NCBI GenBank assembly: GCA_964575755.1
Contig: CAZNRH010000003.1
Location: 2,303 to 66,302 of the forward strand
DNA: 64,000 bases
Direction of reading: 5' to 3'
From: an uncultured Candidatus Saccharibacteria bacterium
GTDB taxonomy: Bacteria; Patescibacteriota; Minisyncoccia; Phycocordibacterales; JABMNX01
A model generated the notes under the pieces. It saw only the letters and a program-made list of their open reading frames with translations, did not search any database and was not told the origin of the DNA. This document shows positions 4,036 through 62,048 of the stretch, piece by piece (the stretch's first letter is position 1; each line of letters begins with the position of its first letter). A program made the translations under genes and the position numbers.

Positions 4036-5364
4036 ATGTCACACATTCAAAACAAACAAAAAGGGACGACATTACTGGATGTTGTTTTTGGCACAGCATT
4101 ACTTCTGATTGTGTTTGTTGGGCTGTATGGAGTATTTCAGCTTACTCTCGAATTAGTGCAGAGTTCTAAATCTAAAACAGGTGCACTTACTCTTGCTAGT
4201 GAACGCATGGAGTTTATTCGTAGTCTCAATTATGATGACGTCGGTACGGTTGGCGGTATCCCGCAAGGAGTGCTCACTGCGGAAGAAAACAATACATTGA
4301 ATGGAATTCCATATACTAAAAAGACGTTTGTTCAATATGTCGACGCTGTAGAAGACGGAGTTGGTGGCTCTGATTCAAATGGAATAACAACAGACTATAA
4401 ACTCGTAAAAGTTACTATAGAATGGCTATTTCGAGGGGACGCACGTTCATTTTCTCTTGTAACAAATGTTACACCTCAAGGTATAGAATCGGTTGTTGGT
4501 GGCGGCACACTGCGCATTAATGTGCTTGATTCTTATGGTTCACCGGTGCCAAGCGCTCAAGTAAATCTTATAAATAACGCACTTAATCCATCTGTTTCTG
4601 TTTCGACATTTTCAAATATAAGTGGAGTTGTGGAGTTTCCTGGAGCCCCTTCGTCAAGTAGTTATGAGATTTCCATAAGTAAATCAGGGTTAAATAGCGC
4701 ACAGACATACTCTGTTGGAGGTCTAAACGTGAACCCAAATCCAGGACACTTAACAGTCGTAGAGGCACAGACAACATCTTCAACTTTTTACATAGACACT
4801 ACTGGCTCAGCAACAGTGCGCACTTTTGAAGCAGGTACAACAACACCACTTCAAAGTATTGACCTATCAATTGCTGGCAATAAAACGATAGGAACAGATG
4901 GAATAGATGATCCTATATATAAGTATAGCTCAGACATTAATACAGGCTCTTTAGGAAGCATTTTGCTAGAGGATCTTGAGTGGGATAATTACACAATCAC
5001 CATAGATAGTGGCGCAACAGGATACGAAATAGCACAGACGTGCGAACCTCAACCATTTGCACTTGCGCCATCAGAAAATAAGGTTGTAGATATGCATCTT
5101 ACTGACAGCTCCACGCATTATATTATTGTGGATGTTACCGATAGTATCGGTAACGATCTTGGTGGAGCAAATGTACGTTTGTATAATGGAGGATATAACA
5201 CTACGTTTTCAACTGATGACTGTGGACTGACTTCATTTAGTAATTCTTCTTCATGGGGTTCGTATTCGATAGATGTATCGCTTTCTGGATATACACCACA
5301 AACAGTGAATAGTGTTGACGCAAGTAGAATATCAAACTTGAGTATCGTGCTAAACAGTATCTAA
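4036..5364 (+). CDS. Large pseudopilin-like protein with an N-terminal hydrophobic helix and Ser/Thr-rich beta-domains
   Basis: The N-terminus reads KG-TTLLD-VVFGTALLLIVFVGL, a class-III signal-like motif with Asp at +5 instead of Glu. Long Thr/Ser/Gly-rich repeats follow. Confidence 0.5.
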   Translation: MSHIQNKQKGTTLLDVVFGTALLLIVFVGLYGVFQLTLELVQSSKSKTGALTLASERMEFIRSLNYDDVGTVGGIPQGVLTAEENNTLNGIPYTKKTFVQYVDAVEDGVGGSDSNGITTDYKLVKVTIEWLFRGDARSFSLVTNVTPQGIESVVGGGTLRINVLDSYGSPVPSAQVNLINNALNPSVSVSTFSNISGVVEFPGAPSSSSYEISISKSGLNSAQTYSVGGLNVNPNPGHLTVVEAQTTSSTFYIDTTGSATVRTFEAGTTTPLQSIDLSIAGNKTIGTDGIDDPIYKYSSDINTGSLGSILLEDLEWDNYTITIDSGATGYEIAQTCEPQPFALAPSENKVVDMHLTDSSTHYIIVDVTDSIGNDLGGANVRLYNGGYNTTFSTDDCGLTSFSNSSSWGSYSIDVSLSGYTPQTVNSVDASRISNLSIVLNSI

Positions 5365-5365
5365 A

Positions 5366-5983
5366 ATGAAACAATTAGTAACTAATAATTATAAACTGAG
5401 GACTAAATATGGGTTTACTCTTATAGAGACGCTCGTGGTCATCACCATCACCATCACCATTATTGGTGCACTCGTTTCATCAATTAGCTTTTTTTATAAA
5501 TCTAATACAAATGCACTTGAGCAATCTTTTGCTATTAACAGTGCTCGTATTGGAATAGAAAGGATAGTTAAAGATATTCGGGAAGCGTCTTTTTCTGATG
5601 AGGGAGCATATCCAGTTATTGCCATGGCTACATCATCGTTTAGTTTTTATAGTGATATAGACAGTGATATCTTTGTTGAAAAGGTAAGATATTTTATTGA
5701 TGGCACTAATTTAAATAAAGGGGTTATAAACTCTTCTGGAGATCCACTTATATATAATAGTAATAATGAAGTTGTTTCTCTTGTCTCAGACAATGTTCGA
5801 AATAATGTAGAGCTGATAGACCTCTTTGTGTTTTTTGATGAATCAGGTGTGGTGATGACAGACATGTCAGATGCGACAGCATTAAGGTTCGTGACAGTGA
5901 AAGTTTCCGTTGACGTTAATCTAGCACGTTTACCAGAGAGTTTTGTACTTAACTCAAGTGCAACACTACGTAATGTAAGATAG
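5366..5983 (+). CDS. Type IV prepilin with a long (16 aa) leader
   Basis: Canonical prepilin cleavage and N-methylation motif KYG-FTLIETLVV followed by a hydrophobic helix. The TM helix contains an in-frame (ATCACC)x3 repeat. Confidence 0.8.
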   Translation: MKQLVTNNYKLRTKYGFTLIETLVVITITITIIGALVSSISFFYKSNTNALEQSFAINSARIGIERIVKDIREASFSDEGAYPVIAMATSSFSFYSDIDSDIFVEKVRYFIDGTNLNKGVINSSGDPLIYNSNNEVVSLVSDNVRNNVELIDLFVFFDESGVVMTDMSDATALRFVTVKVSVDVNLARLPESFVLNSSATLRNVR

Positions 5984-8657: not shown

Positions 8658-9755
8658 AAAAGTATTAAAGATGCAGGAGACGTAAAAGGAAAGAGAGTAC
8701 TTGTTCGAATTGATATTGATGACTCTGGAGTGAGTGCACTCCCCACTAATGCGCTTAAACCAACACTTTCTTATCTTAAAATGGCAGGTGCACGCGTCAT
8801 CCTTTTAGGGCATGTAGGACGTGACGGCAGTGTGTCTTCACGTAAGATTTTTGAAATACTAAAGAAAGAAATAGAGATTAGTTTTATTCCAGACATCGTT
8901 GGAGAAGTAGCCAGAGCAAGCATTAATGAAATGAAAGATGGGGAAGTCGTCTTGTTAGAAAATGTACGTGGCGACACAAGAGAAATGGAAAATGACGAAA
9001 CTTTTTCAAAAGAACTCGCAAGCCTAGCTGACATATATGTAAATGATGCCTTTGCAGTTTCACACAGAGAGCATGCATCACTTACTGGTATAACAAAACA
9101 TTTACCCAGTTATGCAGGACTTCGTTTACTAGAAGAAATAGAGGAGCTCTCTAAAGCCATTAACCCAAAGTCTCCATCCATTTTTATTATCAGTGGAGCA
9201 AAGATAAAGACTAAATTGCCTCTAATAGAAAAATTTATAGAAGTATATGACTATGTATTTGTAGGAGGAGTTCTTGCAAATAACTTCTTTGAAGCTAAAG
9301 GGTTTGAGATTGGCACATCAGTTGTGTCAGATGAGAATATTGATATATCACACCTACTTAATAATGAAAAAGTTCTAATACCAACTGACGTTGTTGTAGA
9401 AGTTGATGGAAAGTCATTAATAAAAAAAGCAGACGGGGTATTAAAAGAAGAAAAAATAGTAGATGCCGGTCCAGAGACTGTCTTAATGCTTAAAGAAAAA
9501 ATTAAAGACATGAACAGTGTTGTATGGAATGGTCCGCTTGGAGAGTATGAGCGTGGTTTTGATACAGCCACCAAAGACTTAGCGCTTGGTATTGCAGAAA
9601 GCCACGCCTATTCAATCGCAGGTGGTGGAGACACTCTTAACGCAATCGCAGATCTCAATATAGAGGAGAAGTTCTCATTTGTCTCAACTGGCGGAGGTGC
9701 AATGCTTGCGTTTTTACTACATGGAACATTGTCTGCAATTGAAGCCTTAAAATAG
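8655..9755 (+). CDS. pgk: Phosphoglycerate kinase (short form)
   Basis: The C-terminal GGGDTLNAI...STGGGAMLAFL signature and an N-terminal substrate-binding region. Confidence 0.85.
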   Translation: MKSIKDAGDVKGKRVLVRIDIDDSGVSALPTNALKPTLSYLKMAGARVILLGHVGRDGSVSSRKIFEILKKEIEISFIPDIVGEVARASINEMKDGEVVLLENVRGDTREMENDETFSKELASLADIYVNDAFAVSHREHASLTGITKHLPSYAGLRLLEEIEELSKAINPKSPSIFIISGAKIKTKLPLIEKFIEVYDYVFVGGVLANNFFEAKGFEIGTSVVSDENIDISHLLNNEKVLIPTDVVVEVDGKSLIKKADGVLKEEKIVDAGPETVLMLKEKIKDMNSVVWNGPLGEYERGFDTATKDLALGIAESHAYSIAGGGDTLNAIADLNIEEKFSFVSTGGGAMLAFLLHGTLSAIEALK

Positions 9756-56302: not shown

Positions 56303-56570
56303 TTTTTTCTTTATCTTTAATTAAAGGAATAAGCAAGTGATACACTTCATAAATCGTAATAACAATACCGACAACAAGACCGAGAAGCAAAAAAAATGGC
56401 TGGGTTTTAAAAAATTTATCACCCAAAACTCCTAGAAAAAGAAAACCGCCGATGGGGATAGAAATTAGAAACCCTAATTGCCACGCAATGGATAACGCGT
56501 AAAATGTTTTAAAATTATTTTTTTGGGACATAGCTTTTGTCTTTTTTATAGGAAAAAACCATAATGGCAA
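56295..56570 (-). CDS. AtpZ/AtpI-like small membrane protein
   Basis: Two TM helices, lying upstream of atpB. Confidence 0.5.
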   Translation of the reverse strand: MPLWFFPIKKTKAMSQKNNFKTFYALSIAWQLGFLISIPIGGFLFLGVLGDKFFKTQPFFLLLGLVVGIVITIYEVYHLLIPLIKDKEKND

Positions 56571-56868
56571 GTATTACCACAAGAGCGAGTAAATACAAAT
56601 ACGCCGTTTGTGATTGCGCTTTTACGGCATCATCTAGAAATTTAATAATAAAAAGAGGTAAAGCAAGAATGATACTGATTGTTAAATGCGAGCGGATAAG
56701 TGAAAATTGCCTGAGTTCTTCAATGGTATCTTCTTGCTTCTTCCTTTTTGTTTCATACTGAATAAATTCCCACAGCGTTTTTATTGCTCCGCTTACAATA
56801 ATGAGAACGCCTATAACGACGAGCACATTAACAAGTATGAAATCGACAGAAGATAGAAAATTAATCAT
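56515..56868 (-). CDS. Membrane protein (possibly AtpI-like)
   Basis: Three TM helices. It overlaps the next ORF. Confidence 0.4.
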   Translation of the reverse strand: MINFLSSVDFILVNVLVVIGVLIIVSGAIKTLWEFIQYETKRKKQEDTIEELRQFSLIRSHLTISIILALPLFIIKFLDDAVKAQSQTAYLYLLALVVILAIMVFSYKKDKSYVPKK

Positions 56869-56879
56869 ATGTTTATATT

Positions 56880-57086
56880 TTAACGCAGAAGATCATCAAT
56901 GGAAACATCAAGCGTTATTGAAATCTTCTGCAAAGTTTCTAATGTCGGGTTTTTGTTTTCCCCGGATTCGATTTTAATAATTGTATTATTAGCAACATCG
57001 GCCATTCTTGCCAATTTTTCTTGGGAAAAGTTATTTCTTTTCCTTAATTTTTTTATATTCTTTGATAATTTTGAACTATTTGACAT
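56880..57086 (-). CDS. XRE-family helix-turn-helix transcriptional regulator, the first gene of the atp operon
   Basis: NIKKLRKRNNFSQEKLARMADVANNTIIKIESGENKNPTLETLQKISITLDVSIDDLL. Confidence 0.8.
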   Translation of the reverse strand: MSNSSKLSKNIKKLRKRNNFSQEKLARMADVANNTIIKIESGENKNPTLETLQKISITLDVSIDDLLR

Positions 57087-57146
57087 ACTTATAACAGAGT
57101 AGTAATACTAAAGTAGAGGTATACATAATTATCTTCTACCAATTTA

Positions 57147-57175
57147 ATAGTACACCATTATTATATCACAGTCAA
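57147..57175 (-). promoter_or_regulatory. Sigma70-like promoter on the minus strand, with -35 TTGACT, a 17-nt spacer and -10 TACTAT
   Basis: Near-consensus hexamers located 55-90 nt upstream of the XRE gene ATG. Confidence 0.55.
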
Positions 57176-57180
57176 ATTTA

Positions 57181-57540
57181 AATAGGGAGCTGTCGCCCGC
57201 GCACGGGAAGGGTTGGGCAAGGGCGACTGTAAATATAAATAGCTCGTCCGAAAAAAATCGGTCGAAGCCCGAAAAGCAAGCGGACAAAAAGGAAGTGGGT
57301 CTGGGGGAAGGAATTTTTGCCCGCTTGCGCTTTCCGCGCCGAAGGCGCGGTTGGGGTGGAAACGCTGGGCGGGAATTGACCACTAGTCACTAAATGAAAT
57401 CATCGTCCTATGGATTCAATTTCACTAAGTGCTCCTGATCTGGACTCGCGCCCCTGCCTACGCTTCGCTACGTCAGGGAACCCGCGTTCCGTCTTTCAAT
57501 TTCTGACATCGCTCACAAAATGCACAACCCCCAGACGAAG
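57181..57540 (-). ncRNA. GC-rich (about 55%) structured block of unknown identity, a candidate ncRNA or long structured leader
   Basis: Multiple GC helices. Read on the minus strand these include a C(UUCG)G tetraloop hairpin CCGCGCC-TTCG-GGCGCGG, GGAAC-GCGG-GTTCC, and the 7-bp stem GTCGCCC...GGGCGAC. Strand is assigned on the basis of the UUCG loop. Confidence 0.35.
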
Positions 57541-57560
57541 TCTGAGGGTTGTGCATTTTG

Positions 57561-57962
57561 TGGAGATGGGGGGTATCGAACCCCCGTTCAATGAAGGGCT
57601 TATGAATGAATCTACAAAGGTGTAGTCTATTTTTTTCTGCACAAAGTGAACAGATTTAAACTTTATATGTATAAAACAAACAAAATCATATAAAGTCGAG
57701 TTTCTTGAGTTCGGTTGTAAGTCGAAACATTCTTACTTCCTAGACCGATGTTTATGACATCAAGCAAATCGTATCGGACGTCTGATTTGTTGATGGTCGC
57801 TTAGGCCTGAGCGTAAGCGAACTGGAAGTCTTTCATCTGAAAAGGTGAAAGCATTCCGAGTGCAGATTTTTTTGCATCTACATGTTCCAGCTTTTTAAGA
57901 AGTTCTGGTCTTCTACCTTGCACATACATATGCTAACGACACTGTCGAAGCCGATCATCCCC
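57561..57962 (-). ncRNA. ssrA: tmRNA (SsrA), about 402 nt
   Basis: - The 5' end GGGGATGATCGGCTTCGACAG resembles the tmRNA 5' consensus GGGGCUGAUUCUGGAUUCGACGG.
- The 3' end GGGGGTTCGATACCCCC-CATCTCC-A forms a T-arm plus acceptor strand.
- The acceptor helix carries a G3.U70 pair.
- The 3' end is followed by a 15-bp processing hairpin.
- smpB is adjacent.
- A candidate tag ORF GCA AAA ... GCC TAA begins about 88 nt from the 5' end. Confidence 0.8.
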
Positions 57963-58089: not shown

Positions 58090-58341
58090 TTAAAATTCTA
58101 GTTGATGAATTTCCTCATCCTCATCAAATATTTTCCCAGAGGGATCTTCGTCGGTATCTTTTCCGAACTTAACACCAGAGGAAACTTCATCCTCATCGTC
58201 ATCGGTTCTTAATACAAGAAGTTCTTTGTCAGGATCTTCAGCTTCCAATTGTGCTTCTCTGTTCCTAGCAAGGAAATCTTCCCGTACTTCTTCAATCGGT
58301 ATTTCTATCATCCCAACCGGTATTTTTTTTGTAGCACTCAT
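58090..58341 (-). CDS. Highly acidic 83-aa protein lying between smpB and ssrA
   Basis: Acidic C-terminal half DDDEDEVSSGVKFGKDTDEDPSGKIFDEDEE. Confidence 0.45.
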   Translation of the reverse strand: MSATKKIPVGMIEIPIEEVREDFLARNREAQLEAEDPDKELLVLRTDDDEDEVSSGVKFGKDTDEDPSGKIFDEDEEIHQLEF

Positions 58342-61974: not shown

Positions 61975-62048
61975 TCCGCCCTCCAGGACTTGAACCTGGA
62001 ACCTCCAAGATATAAGCTTGGTGCTCTAACCAATTGAGCTAAGAGCGG
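61975..62048 (-). tRNA. tRNA-Ile with anticodon UAU
   Basis: Cloverleaf on the minus strand:
- acceptor CCGCTCT/AGGGCGG;
- D-arm GCTC-AATTGGTTA-GAGC;
- anticodon stem CCAAG/CTTGG with loop CTTATAT;
- T-arm CCAGG-TTCAAGT-CCTGG;
- discriminator A, with CCA not encoded. Confidence 0.8.

Follow-up and report, generated by a model that had tools for sequence, protein, structure and literature searches.

Elements that integrate into transfer RNA (tRNA) or transfer-messenger RNA (tmRNA) genes leave behind one gene copy that is complete and one that is partial, and the repeats that bracket them are commonly 20-25 bp long and reach from the T-loop to the 3' end (10.1101/2020.11.02.365908, PMC9897764). 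For the T-loop as a sublocation of integration, both of these sources cite Williams 2002 (PMC100330). Here we describe a small structured element that occupies this position behind the tmRNA gene (ssrA) in a 64,000-nucleotide (nt) stretch of contig CAZNRH010000003.1 from an uncultured Candidatus Saccharibacteria bacterium, hereafter the window. Proteins named Kaiserbacteria or Paceibacterota match its SmpB at up to 88% identity, and the genome is that of a low-GC member of the Patescibacteria. A preliminary description had singled out a GC-rich, structured block of about 360 nt (57181-57540), lying between the tmRNA 3' end and the promoter of an operon that begins with an XRE gene followed by atp genes, and had suggested an unrecognized RNA, 6S-like or lineage specific, or else a long structured leader. 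Our results favor a different view. With a probability of roughly 0.6, positions 57370-57507, together with the preceding hairpin and anti-tail segment and the decayed tail that follows, represent one copy of a family of ~200-nt, protein-less insertion elements (type A) situated in the T-loop of Patescibacteria tRNA and tmRNA genes.

The analysis established a covariation-backed fold on the strand of the gene, an association with the 3' ends of tRNA and tmRNA genes, tail repeats that begin at T-loop position C56, and variable occupancy. A typical integrated copy reads, in order, as the gene body up to T55, a full replacement tail (C56 through the 3' end), a terminator hairpin, an anti-tail segment that is the inverse of the tail, the dinucleotide AG with a three-helix core, the displaced tail starting again at C56, and a second terminator. 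The corresponding parts of the window are as follows.

57558 to 57962, minus strand: tmRNA gene (ssrA), the target gene ahead of the element; full-length match to Rfam RF00023, 115.4 bits.
57514 to 57562, minus strand: terminator-like hairpin; arms 57562-57540 and 57536-57514, 23 bp, 3-nt loop, 96% complementary.
57497 to 57516, minus strand: anti-tail segment (inverted repeat, IR) GUGAGCGAUGUCAGAAAUUG; decayed inverse complement of the tmRNA tail, as judged by in-register pairing with both tail copies.
57370 to 57507, minus strand: type A core; match to covariance model R1 with 82.2 bits, E 8.6e-23, over model positions 1-131 of 131.
57356 to 57378, minus strand: copy 2, the decayed displaced tmRNA tail CAAUUCCCGCCCAGCGUUUCCAC, as judged by comparison with the tmRNA ends of relatives.

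ARAGORN places the tmRNA gene at 57560-57962, with the tag peptide AKKSALGMLSPFQMKDFQFAYAQA, and we refer to its 3' tail, from the T-loop to the 3' end, as copy 1.

The core is the best-defined part of the family. A search pattern combining three shared motifs (GAAAGNCG...GCACTTAGT...TTAGTGAC) was found in 64 metagenome contigs, and the alignment of 57 distinct copies served as the seed of model R1. Their common fold has three parts: helix P1, which closes it; hairpin P2, which has conserved GGA/GA purines on either side of the 3-bp helix at its base; and a long hairpin (P3/P4) that bears a conserved CACUUAGU/ACUUAGUG stem with a U-U mismatch. Across the seed, 90.7% of the cells pair, and sliding the partners lowers this share to 29-40%. 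The covariation score drops in the same controls from 0.394 to at most 0.11, and 0 of 500 shuffles attained 0.394. When the comparison was widened to 84 distinct sequences, including members that the search pattern had missed, double-sided changes were seen in 32 of 35 pairs; even an isolated pair, between N in GAAAGNCG and N' in GAGN'CG, was occupied by AU 31 times, GC 25, CG 15 and UA 3. Because G-U cells outnumber A-C cells (110 versus 34), the fold belongs to the strand of the gene. The core is most likely an RNA on that strand.

The window copy conforms to this model. P1 is formed by 57503-57497 with 57378-57372 and is followed by the junction GAAAG (57497-57493), P2 occupies 57493-57443, and P3/P4 extends over 57440-57378, with the conserved GCACUUAGU at 57432-57424 and UUAGUGAC at 57393-57386. 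These two motifs and the conserved GAAAGNCG are all present; the motif pattern has one match in the window when 0.01 would be expected by chance, and the R1 match is the only one in the 64 kb. The few non-standard pairs of its alignment fall at positions that vary across the family as well, and the minimum-free-energy fold of the minus strand includes P3/P4. A diverged counterpart of 57373-57504 with compensating stem changes, read by eye, occurs at comparison locus L084, and nhmmer located a third counterpart directly behind the tmRNA of L011.

R1 recovered many copies that the search pattern had missed, for 79 distinct copies in all, and had no match in 45 SmpB loci of other phyla or in the XRE loci. 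Subfamilies in L128, L141, L108, L117 and L136 keep the overall fold and score only 31-63 bits; their P4 core sequences differ, with GCGCTTAGCGA...GCTTAGCGAC in place of the usual motifs and, elsewhere, GTTCTTA...TTTAGAA. The element corresponds to no known RNA family in Rfam, whether the canonical member L112 or 19 further loci are scanned. The window block likewise matched no Rfam 15 family at the gathering threshold or at E <= 10, including RNase P, the signal recognition particle (SRP) RNA, 6S, Y RNA/YrlA, HEARO and the self-cleaving ribozymes; because there is no match even at the looser cutoff, we agree with the preliminary description that RNase P and SRP RNAs are absent. We did consider RNase P RNA, whose P4-like strings can be seen by eye in GAAAGACGG and GGGAACCCGCGUUCC; these strings are the junction and P2 of the family, and the RNase P models gave no match at E <= 10. 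Open reading frames (ORFs) of 79, 70 and 71 amino acids overlap the block, where conservation resides in paired columns with compensatory changes rather than in codons. A phage origin was also entertained after a loose form of the pattern matched 27 IMG/VR contigs. R1 rejected all of them except for one partial match of 15.9 bits, none of the 27 has the motif behind a tRNA as expected, and no copy of the element was found in the IMG/VR, phage or plasmid collections. Finally, we found no description of the family in the full-text literature, a coverage that excludes subscription journals, where one may exist.

The placement of the copies connects them with tRNA and tmRNA genes. ARAGORN reports a tRNA or tmRNA gene ending on the same strand within 400 nt upstream of 61 of the 79 distinct copies, at a median gap of 57 nt. 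The genes concerned comprise 16 tRNA isotypes and 7 tmRNAs, the element is always on the strand of the gene, and members outside the seed behave in the same way (17 of 21). Most exceptions are found where a contig ends or follow a gene that escaped ARAGORN, such as the tmRNA of L011, which was found by Rfam, and a tRNA in L114. The latter is probably interrupted by a group I intron, which we observed at 777-1067 of L114 (Rfam, 83.5 bits), just upstream of the T-arm and 3' end that precede the type A copy. In the window, the tmRNA ends at 57558 or 57560, the hairpin occupies 57562-57514, and the element starts at 57507. Since the same element follows 16 tRNA isotypes elsewhere, it belongs with the upstream tmRNA gene rather than with the downstream operon, and the suggestion of a structured leader fails on this point.

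Rather than a mobile element, it could be a small RNA that benefits the host, linked to tRNA and tmRNA genes and produced by read-through or from its own transcription. Under that explanation, the anti-tail segment would pair with the 3' half of the neighboring tRNA or tmRNA, or in cis with the tail copy, and serve maturation, quality control, modification guidance or regulation; the tail repeats would be functional pairing partners rather than scars of insertion. We regard this as unlikely. In its favor, purifying selection preserves the core in copies that have diverged deeply, including copies of the same genome, and the element is common: of the 95 tRNA and tmRNA genes in the sampled loci, 62 are occupied, in a sample chosen for having at least one copy. 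In addition, the neighbors of the copies are housekeeping genes (LepA, RbfA, aminoacyl-tRNA synthetases, TsaD, ClpB and SmpB), with no mobility gene recurring within 3 kb.

The sequences that flank the core speak to both explanations. In most copies, the T-loop-to-3'-end segment of the gene is repeated on both sides, once inverted and once direct. Exact direct tail repeats are 12-27 nt long, and up to 63 nt, and start at C56. The anti-tail segment complements the 3' part of the T-loop, the 3' strand of the T-stem and sometimes the acceptor strand, and it ends in UCGAA. Position 8 of the element and position 59 of the T-loop covary (AU 22, CG 21, UA 19 and GC 4 among the 84 sequences). The host-RNA explanation would account for two features of the anti-tail. 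First, it folds with the gene tail (G57-66) into one long hairpin around the terminator in 35 of 44 minimum-free-energy folds. Second, where the tail copies have diverged, it matches the functional copy 1 better in 14 of 24 cases and copy 2 in 6.

In the window, these segments have decayed. The anti-tail pairs at 11-12 of 22 in-register positions, and its inner 7 nt (57503-57497) make up the 5' strand of P1. Copy 2 is closer to the tmRNA tails of relatives (UUCGAUUCCCGCCAUCUCCAC) than to that of the window itself (UUCGAUACCCCCCAUCUCCAC): it consists of the 3' part of the T-loop, the 3' strand of the T-stem of the relatives (CCCGC) and a terminal UCCAC, with a stretch inserted between them, and is identical to the present window tail at only 8 of 22 in-register positions. 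No direct repeat of the present tail with 3 or fewer mismatches was found in the window, and copy 2 can be recognized only against the tails of relatives. Decay of this kind, like the tandem arrays found in L127, L136, L141, L117 and L089, would not be expected of a required pairing partner.

The T-loop junction is also used by modules that are unrelated to type A. Type B, of L089 and L105, and a further module, of L069, are found at the same junction with the same repeats. Because unrelated modules share the junction and the repeats, a shared insertion process is indicated rather than a single RNA function, which counts against the host-RNA explanation. Type B is smaller (TCGAAAAGGTTGCCAGATATTTT...AAATATCGACAAC...GTACTGATTNTGTAANAAT) and bracketed by direct repeats of the tRNA tail. 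It lies at 500-590 and 742-830 of L089, arrayed with a type A copy behind tRNA-Ile, and downstream of a type A copy in L105. At 7790-8100 of L069, a metagenome-assembled genome (MAG) labelled Gammaproteobacteria, tandem units behind the tmRNA each consist of the tail CGAAACCCGCCGCCTCCACCA, a terminator and a GC-rich module of ~90 nt; the C56 junction is the same, the module is different, and R1 does not match it.

Comparison of related genomes shows that occupancy is variable. The tmRNAs of SmpB-anchored relatives are 85-95% identical to that of the window, BLAST similarity ends exactly at the tmRNA 3' end (57559/57560), and the sequence that follows varies from genome to genome among close relatives. 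At the tmRNA gene, the window and L084 carry the element, and L083 and L086-88 do not. For tRNA-Ile the element is present in L089 and lacking in the window, and for tRNA-Cys it is present in L128 and lacking in L098. The tRNA-Ile gene of the window (anticodon UAU) lies at 61975-62048 on the minus strand and has the same place in L086, L089, L009 and L012. The preliminary description had proposed a comparison of the region downstream of ssrA in related genomes, with absence from close relatives counting against its reading, and the answer is divided: the block as a whole is absent from close relatives, and the core is conserved at analogous sites in many genomes. Absence from orthologous tmRNA and tRNA sites of close relatives, an unoccupied tRNA-Ile gene and a single copy in 64 kb are all difficult to reconcile with an RNA that the host needs.

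The tmRNA gene is a classical target of genomic islands. A large serine recombinase gene (Resolvase and Recombinase domains) overlaps the tmRNA 3' end at 4882-6456 of L089 and 4078-5661 of L090; this is an ordinary island in the place that the small element takes in the window. One could argue from this that the block is a functionless remnant, the fused attachment-site (att) arms of an integrase-bearing island or prophage whose interior was lost, and that the direct tail repeats are the normal scar of such an integration (PMC9897764). Decaying arms, however, would not preserve 32 of 35 pairs through compensatory changes in 84 diverged copies, nor recur at ~200 nt behind 16 tRNA isotypes, and no copy was seen beside integrase or cargo genes. 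We therefore consider a remnant very improbable. Two further observations come from the same neighborhoods. At 58090-58341 on the minus strand of the window, between smpB and the tmRNA gene, there is a very acidic ORF of 83 amino acids, and a similar-sized gene is found there in L082, L083 and L088. In L006, a Kaiserbacteria MAG, a LOOT RNA (Rfam RF03000, 82 bits) lies at 8964-9081, ~2 kb downstream of the tmRNA.

The remainder of the block has a more ordinary composition. As the preliminary description reported, the block is GC rich in AT-rich surroundings (G+C of 0.54-0.555 across 57200-57599 in 200-nt steps, compared with 0.285-0.355 to the left, at 56400-57199, and 0.33-0.385 to the right). 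It is also structured: 57175-57560 is more stable than dinucleotide shuffles on both strands (z of -7.45 on the minus and -4.46 on the plus strand), part of the signal comes from the 23-bp terminator hairpin at 57514-57562, and the core scores 82.2 bits as noted above. The location given there is borne out too, with the tmRNA end at 57558 and a promoter-like site at 57175-57147. Yet the block is a patchwork of five adjoining parts, of which the conserved element accounts for only 138 nt (57370-57507). On the minus strand, the order is the terminator hairpin, the 138-nt element, the decayed tail copy, two hairpins, and the upstream region of the XRE-atp operon. The last two parts are listed here.

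57334 to 57350, minus strand: UUCG-capped 7-bp hairpin CCGCGCC-UUCG-GGCGCGG, from sequence and folds; outside the conserved element.
57272 to 57328, minus strand: 15-bp hairpin (57328-57314 with 57290-57276), 23-nt C/U-rich loop, then UUUU (57275-57272).
57087 to 57272, minus strand: native XRE-atp upstream region, 86-87% identical to relatives; not part of the element.

The first terminator-like hairpin (57514-57562) begins within the last bases of the tmRNA, resembles a terminator on both strands and is present in the minimum-free-energy folds of both. It is the tip of the long hairpin made by the gene tail and the anti-tail segment, and equivalent hairpins separate gene from element across the family. 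A consensus terminator scan omits this hairpin and that at 57276-57328, both of which are excluded by its stem and loop limits; by eye, one reads GGGUUGUGC followed by AUUUUGUG, and UUUU after the 15-bp stem of the second hairpin. The UUCG hairpin that the preliminary description had highlighted does exist on the minus strand, and it lies outside the conserved element. Solely by its position, it is probably part of the displaced old tmRNA trailer. The hairpin at 57272-57328, terminator-like on the minus strand, is by position probably the displaced original tmRNA terminator, and family members likewise have a second terminator after copy 2. Its loop UUCCUUCCCCCAGACCCACUUCC (57291-57313, minus strand) is similar to CTTTCCCCCACCCATC, found after the tmRNA terminator in L086 (~5350-5366), where the site is unoccupied; the likeness may be a trace of the original trailer. 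The hairpins at 57276-57350 have no homolog in 189 loci or in the phage and plasmid collections, and a comparison of 57176-57372 with all fetched loci by nhmmer and blastn returned only a weak match to L020 on the opposite strand. A covariance-model search of 57100-57375 with filters off gave at most 3 bits, and thus no second type A copy or half-copy.

The left quarter of the block is ordinary operon upstream sequence, because the upstream region of relatives aligns to ~57272. Specifically, L183-L189 align at 86-87% identity over 56872-57204 of the window, with the alignment reaching ~57272, and the GC-rich hairpin at 57190-57229 belongs to this native region. A sigma-70-like site, TTGACT-17-TACTAT (57175-57147, minus strand), is conserved upstream of XRE-atp in the same relatives, where the gene upstream of the operon is DUF763 and the tmRNA gene is nowhere near. 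The XRE gene itself (56880-57086, minus strand) is conserved at the head of the atp operon in L183-L189. In this lineage, a 68-amino-acid XRE-type helix-turn-helix protein opens the ATP synthase operon, with more than 1400 homologs at E <= 1e-8, many of them ~70% identical.

This composition bears on the original suggestions for the block. A single noncoding RNA of ~360 nt, 6S-like or lineage specific, or a long XRE-atp leader would fit a GC-rich sequence that folds well on both strands directly upstream of an operon. The conserved unit, however, is 138 nt long, and copies of the family are found behind tRNA and tmRNA genes irrespective of the downstream sequence. Furthermore, the promoter-like site of the operon is downstream of the element on the minus strand, the ~90 nt at the left (57181-57272) are the usual upstream region that relatives possess without the element, and nothing in the block resembles 6S or matches its Rfam model. 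Any of these explanations of the block as a whole is thus scarcely credible. What survives of the earlier idea of a lineage-specific RNA is a structured element on the minus strand that Rfam does not contain. What remains of the block is probably the displaced old trailer, plus ordinary sequence upstream of the atp operon.

Marks of insertion in the family are the exact repeats from C56, the covariation of element position 8 with T-loop position 59, the tandem arrays, the uneven occupancy of orthologous sites and, in the window, a copy 2 closer to the tails of relatives than to the present one. If the family consists of insertions, its history can be outlined. The element would have entered by site-specific recombination within the T-loop, in the manner of tRNA-targeting genomic islands, and would restore the gene with its own tail and terminator, leaving the old gene tail behind as a direct repeat. 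Recombination between the two tails could then excise it. An RNA in the window would span ~57516 to the terminator-like hairpin ending at 57272, or ~245 nt. Selection would maintain the core either for recognition by the machinery that moves the element or for a service of the processed RNA to the cell.

An alternative account of the same layout is that the conserved fold acts as single-stranded DNA. The tail copy and the anti-tail would anneal and mimic a double-stranded target from T-loop to 3' end, as in CTX-phi attP or integron attC, making the element a small recombination substrate inserted by a host tyrosine recombinase. Direct repeats at both ends with an inverted arm a short loop away are what integration of a folded att hairpin predicts, and the fixed orientation and strand-specific wobble bias would also be expected of a single-stranded DNA fold. 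The element, moreover, encodes no protein. Nevertheless, the unpaired purine-rich junctions (GAAAG, and GGA/GAG by the 3-bp helix) and the conserved U-U mismatch look RNA-like, and features of both kinds are typical of RNA tertiary motifs. The anti-tail often pairs over only 7-12 nt, there is no obvious replication or transfer route for a gene-less DNA of ~200 nt, and the IMG/VR, phage and plasmid collections yielded none. On balance, we find this account improbable.

Several points weigh against our interpretation of the family as insertion elements. Copies within a contig have a mean identity of 53% (range 32-73%), compared with 56-58% between contigs. Because they are no more alike than copies from different contigs, there is no sign of recent bursts of transposition, and recent intragenomic spread, which we had considered, is unsupported. 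This divergence suggests long residence under purifying selection on the fold. Within 3 kb of the copies there is no enrichment of integrases, transposases or reverse transcriptases, and an ordinary integrase model does not explain how the anti-tail matches at least 16 different tRNAs. Repeat-mediated deletion could have produced every difference in occupancy, as losses instead of gains. The window copy may no longer be mobile, since its anti-tail and copy 2 have decayed. Lastly, the folded species may be RNA or single-stranded DNA.

The anti-tail match also invites a bolder proposal, which we advance tentatively and consider possible more than probable. The family may be a new class of gene-less elements whose targeting is held in an anti-T-arm of RNA or folded DNA and that insert between T-loop positions 55 and 56 by a mechanism undescribed in bacteria, or else it may consist of tRNA-specific guide RNAs that lie beside their targets. 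Conceivable routes of insertion would be target-primed copying of an RNA whose 3' end is tRNA-like and hairpin-att recombination by a host enzyme.

Should the family prove to be what we propose, a substantial share of Patescibacteria tRNA genes, along with the tmRNA gene, would harbor a small, structured passenger that is unknown to Rfam and overlooked by annotation pipelines. GC-rich "mystery" blocks beside the tRNA genes of AT-rich reduced genomes, and the tRNA-tail fragments found there, would then have an explanation. The element would represent the protein-less extreme among elements that use tRNA T-loops as landing sites, and it would raise the question of how a gene-less element of 200 nt keeps a segment matched to its target for at least 16 tRNAs. 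More generally, the strongly conserved fold would be a candidate for a new class of functional RNA, whether as a processing signal, a guide or a recombination substrate.

Type A shares features with several known systems. Like the tRNA-mimicking RNAs (the tRNA-like domain of tmRNA and Y RNA/YrlA), it has a closing helix made from a real T-stem and sometimes acceptor-stem sequence; in copies of the L112 kind, the helix amounts to an acceptor-plus-T minihelix with the core replacing the T-loop. Unlike them, it lacks a T-loop and a D-arm mimic and matches none of the Y RNA, YrlA and tRNA families of Rfam, and many copies pair only the T-stem part. The omega RNAs of TnpB and IscB and the bridge RNA of IS110 offer another parallel, that of a structured noncoding RNA at an element boundary with a target-matching segment. 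Here, however, no TnpB, IscB or IS110 recombinase gene is nearby and there is no match to Rfam HEARO or related families; moreover, IS200/IS605, IscB and IS110 elements neither duplicate their target nor rebuild a gene tail. As in CTX-phi attP(+), other Xer-exploiting elements and integron attC sites, inverted arms fold into a mimic of the double-stranded target, in a layout of repeat, loop, inverted arm, body and repeat with fixed orientation and a strand-specific fold, although the arms in the window have decayed. This likeness is drawn from predicted folds, and the folded species may be RNA rather than DNA. Type A differs in targeting a tRNA T-loop instead of dif or attI and in having neither phage nor cassette genes, and no recombinase is tied to the element.

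Non-autonomous integrative derivatives (cis-mobilizable elements and satellites) and miniature inverted-repeat transposable elements (MITEs) resemble type A in being short, protein-less and presumably moved in trans; we identified no helper element for the type A family. MITEs have terminal inverted repeats of their own, short target duplications of fixed length and many near-identical copies. The inverted repeat of type A, by contrast, is target sequence, its repeats are fixed at the left edge (C56) and vary at the right (12-63 nt), and its copies are diverged within a contig (32-73% identity), with one copy in the 64 kb of the window.

The closest resemblance is to the islands, prophages and integrative and conjugative elements of tRNA and tmRNA genes. 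As with these, insertion is in the 3' part of the gene, a new tail is supplied so that the gene stays intact, the old tail persists at the far end as a direct repeat of ~20-25 nt from the T-loop (decayed in the window), presence varies between genomes, and insertions can be in tandem. Unlike islands of 3-130 kb, the element is ~200 nt long and has neither cargo nor an integrase of its own, and it possesses a covariation-supported structured core and an inverse copy of the tail beside the gene. A given island family normally keeps to one target, whereas the single type A family is found behind 16 isotypes and the tmRNA. The nearest known kind to the type A family is thus the T-loop-crossover island, with which it has the common scar pattern, and there is a real chance that its mechanism is new.

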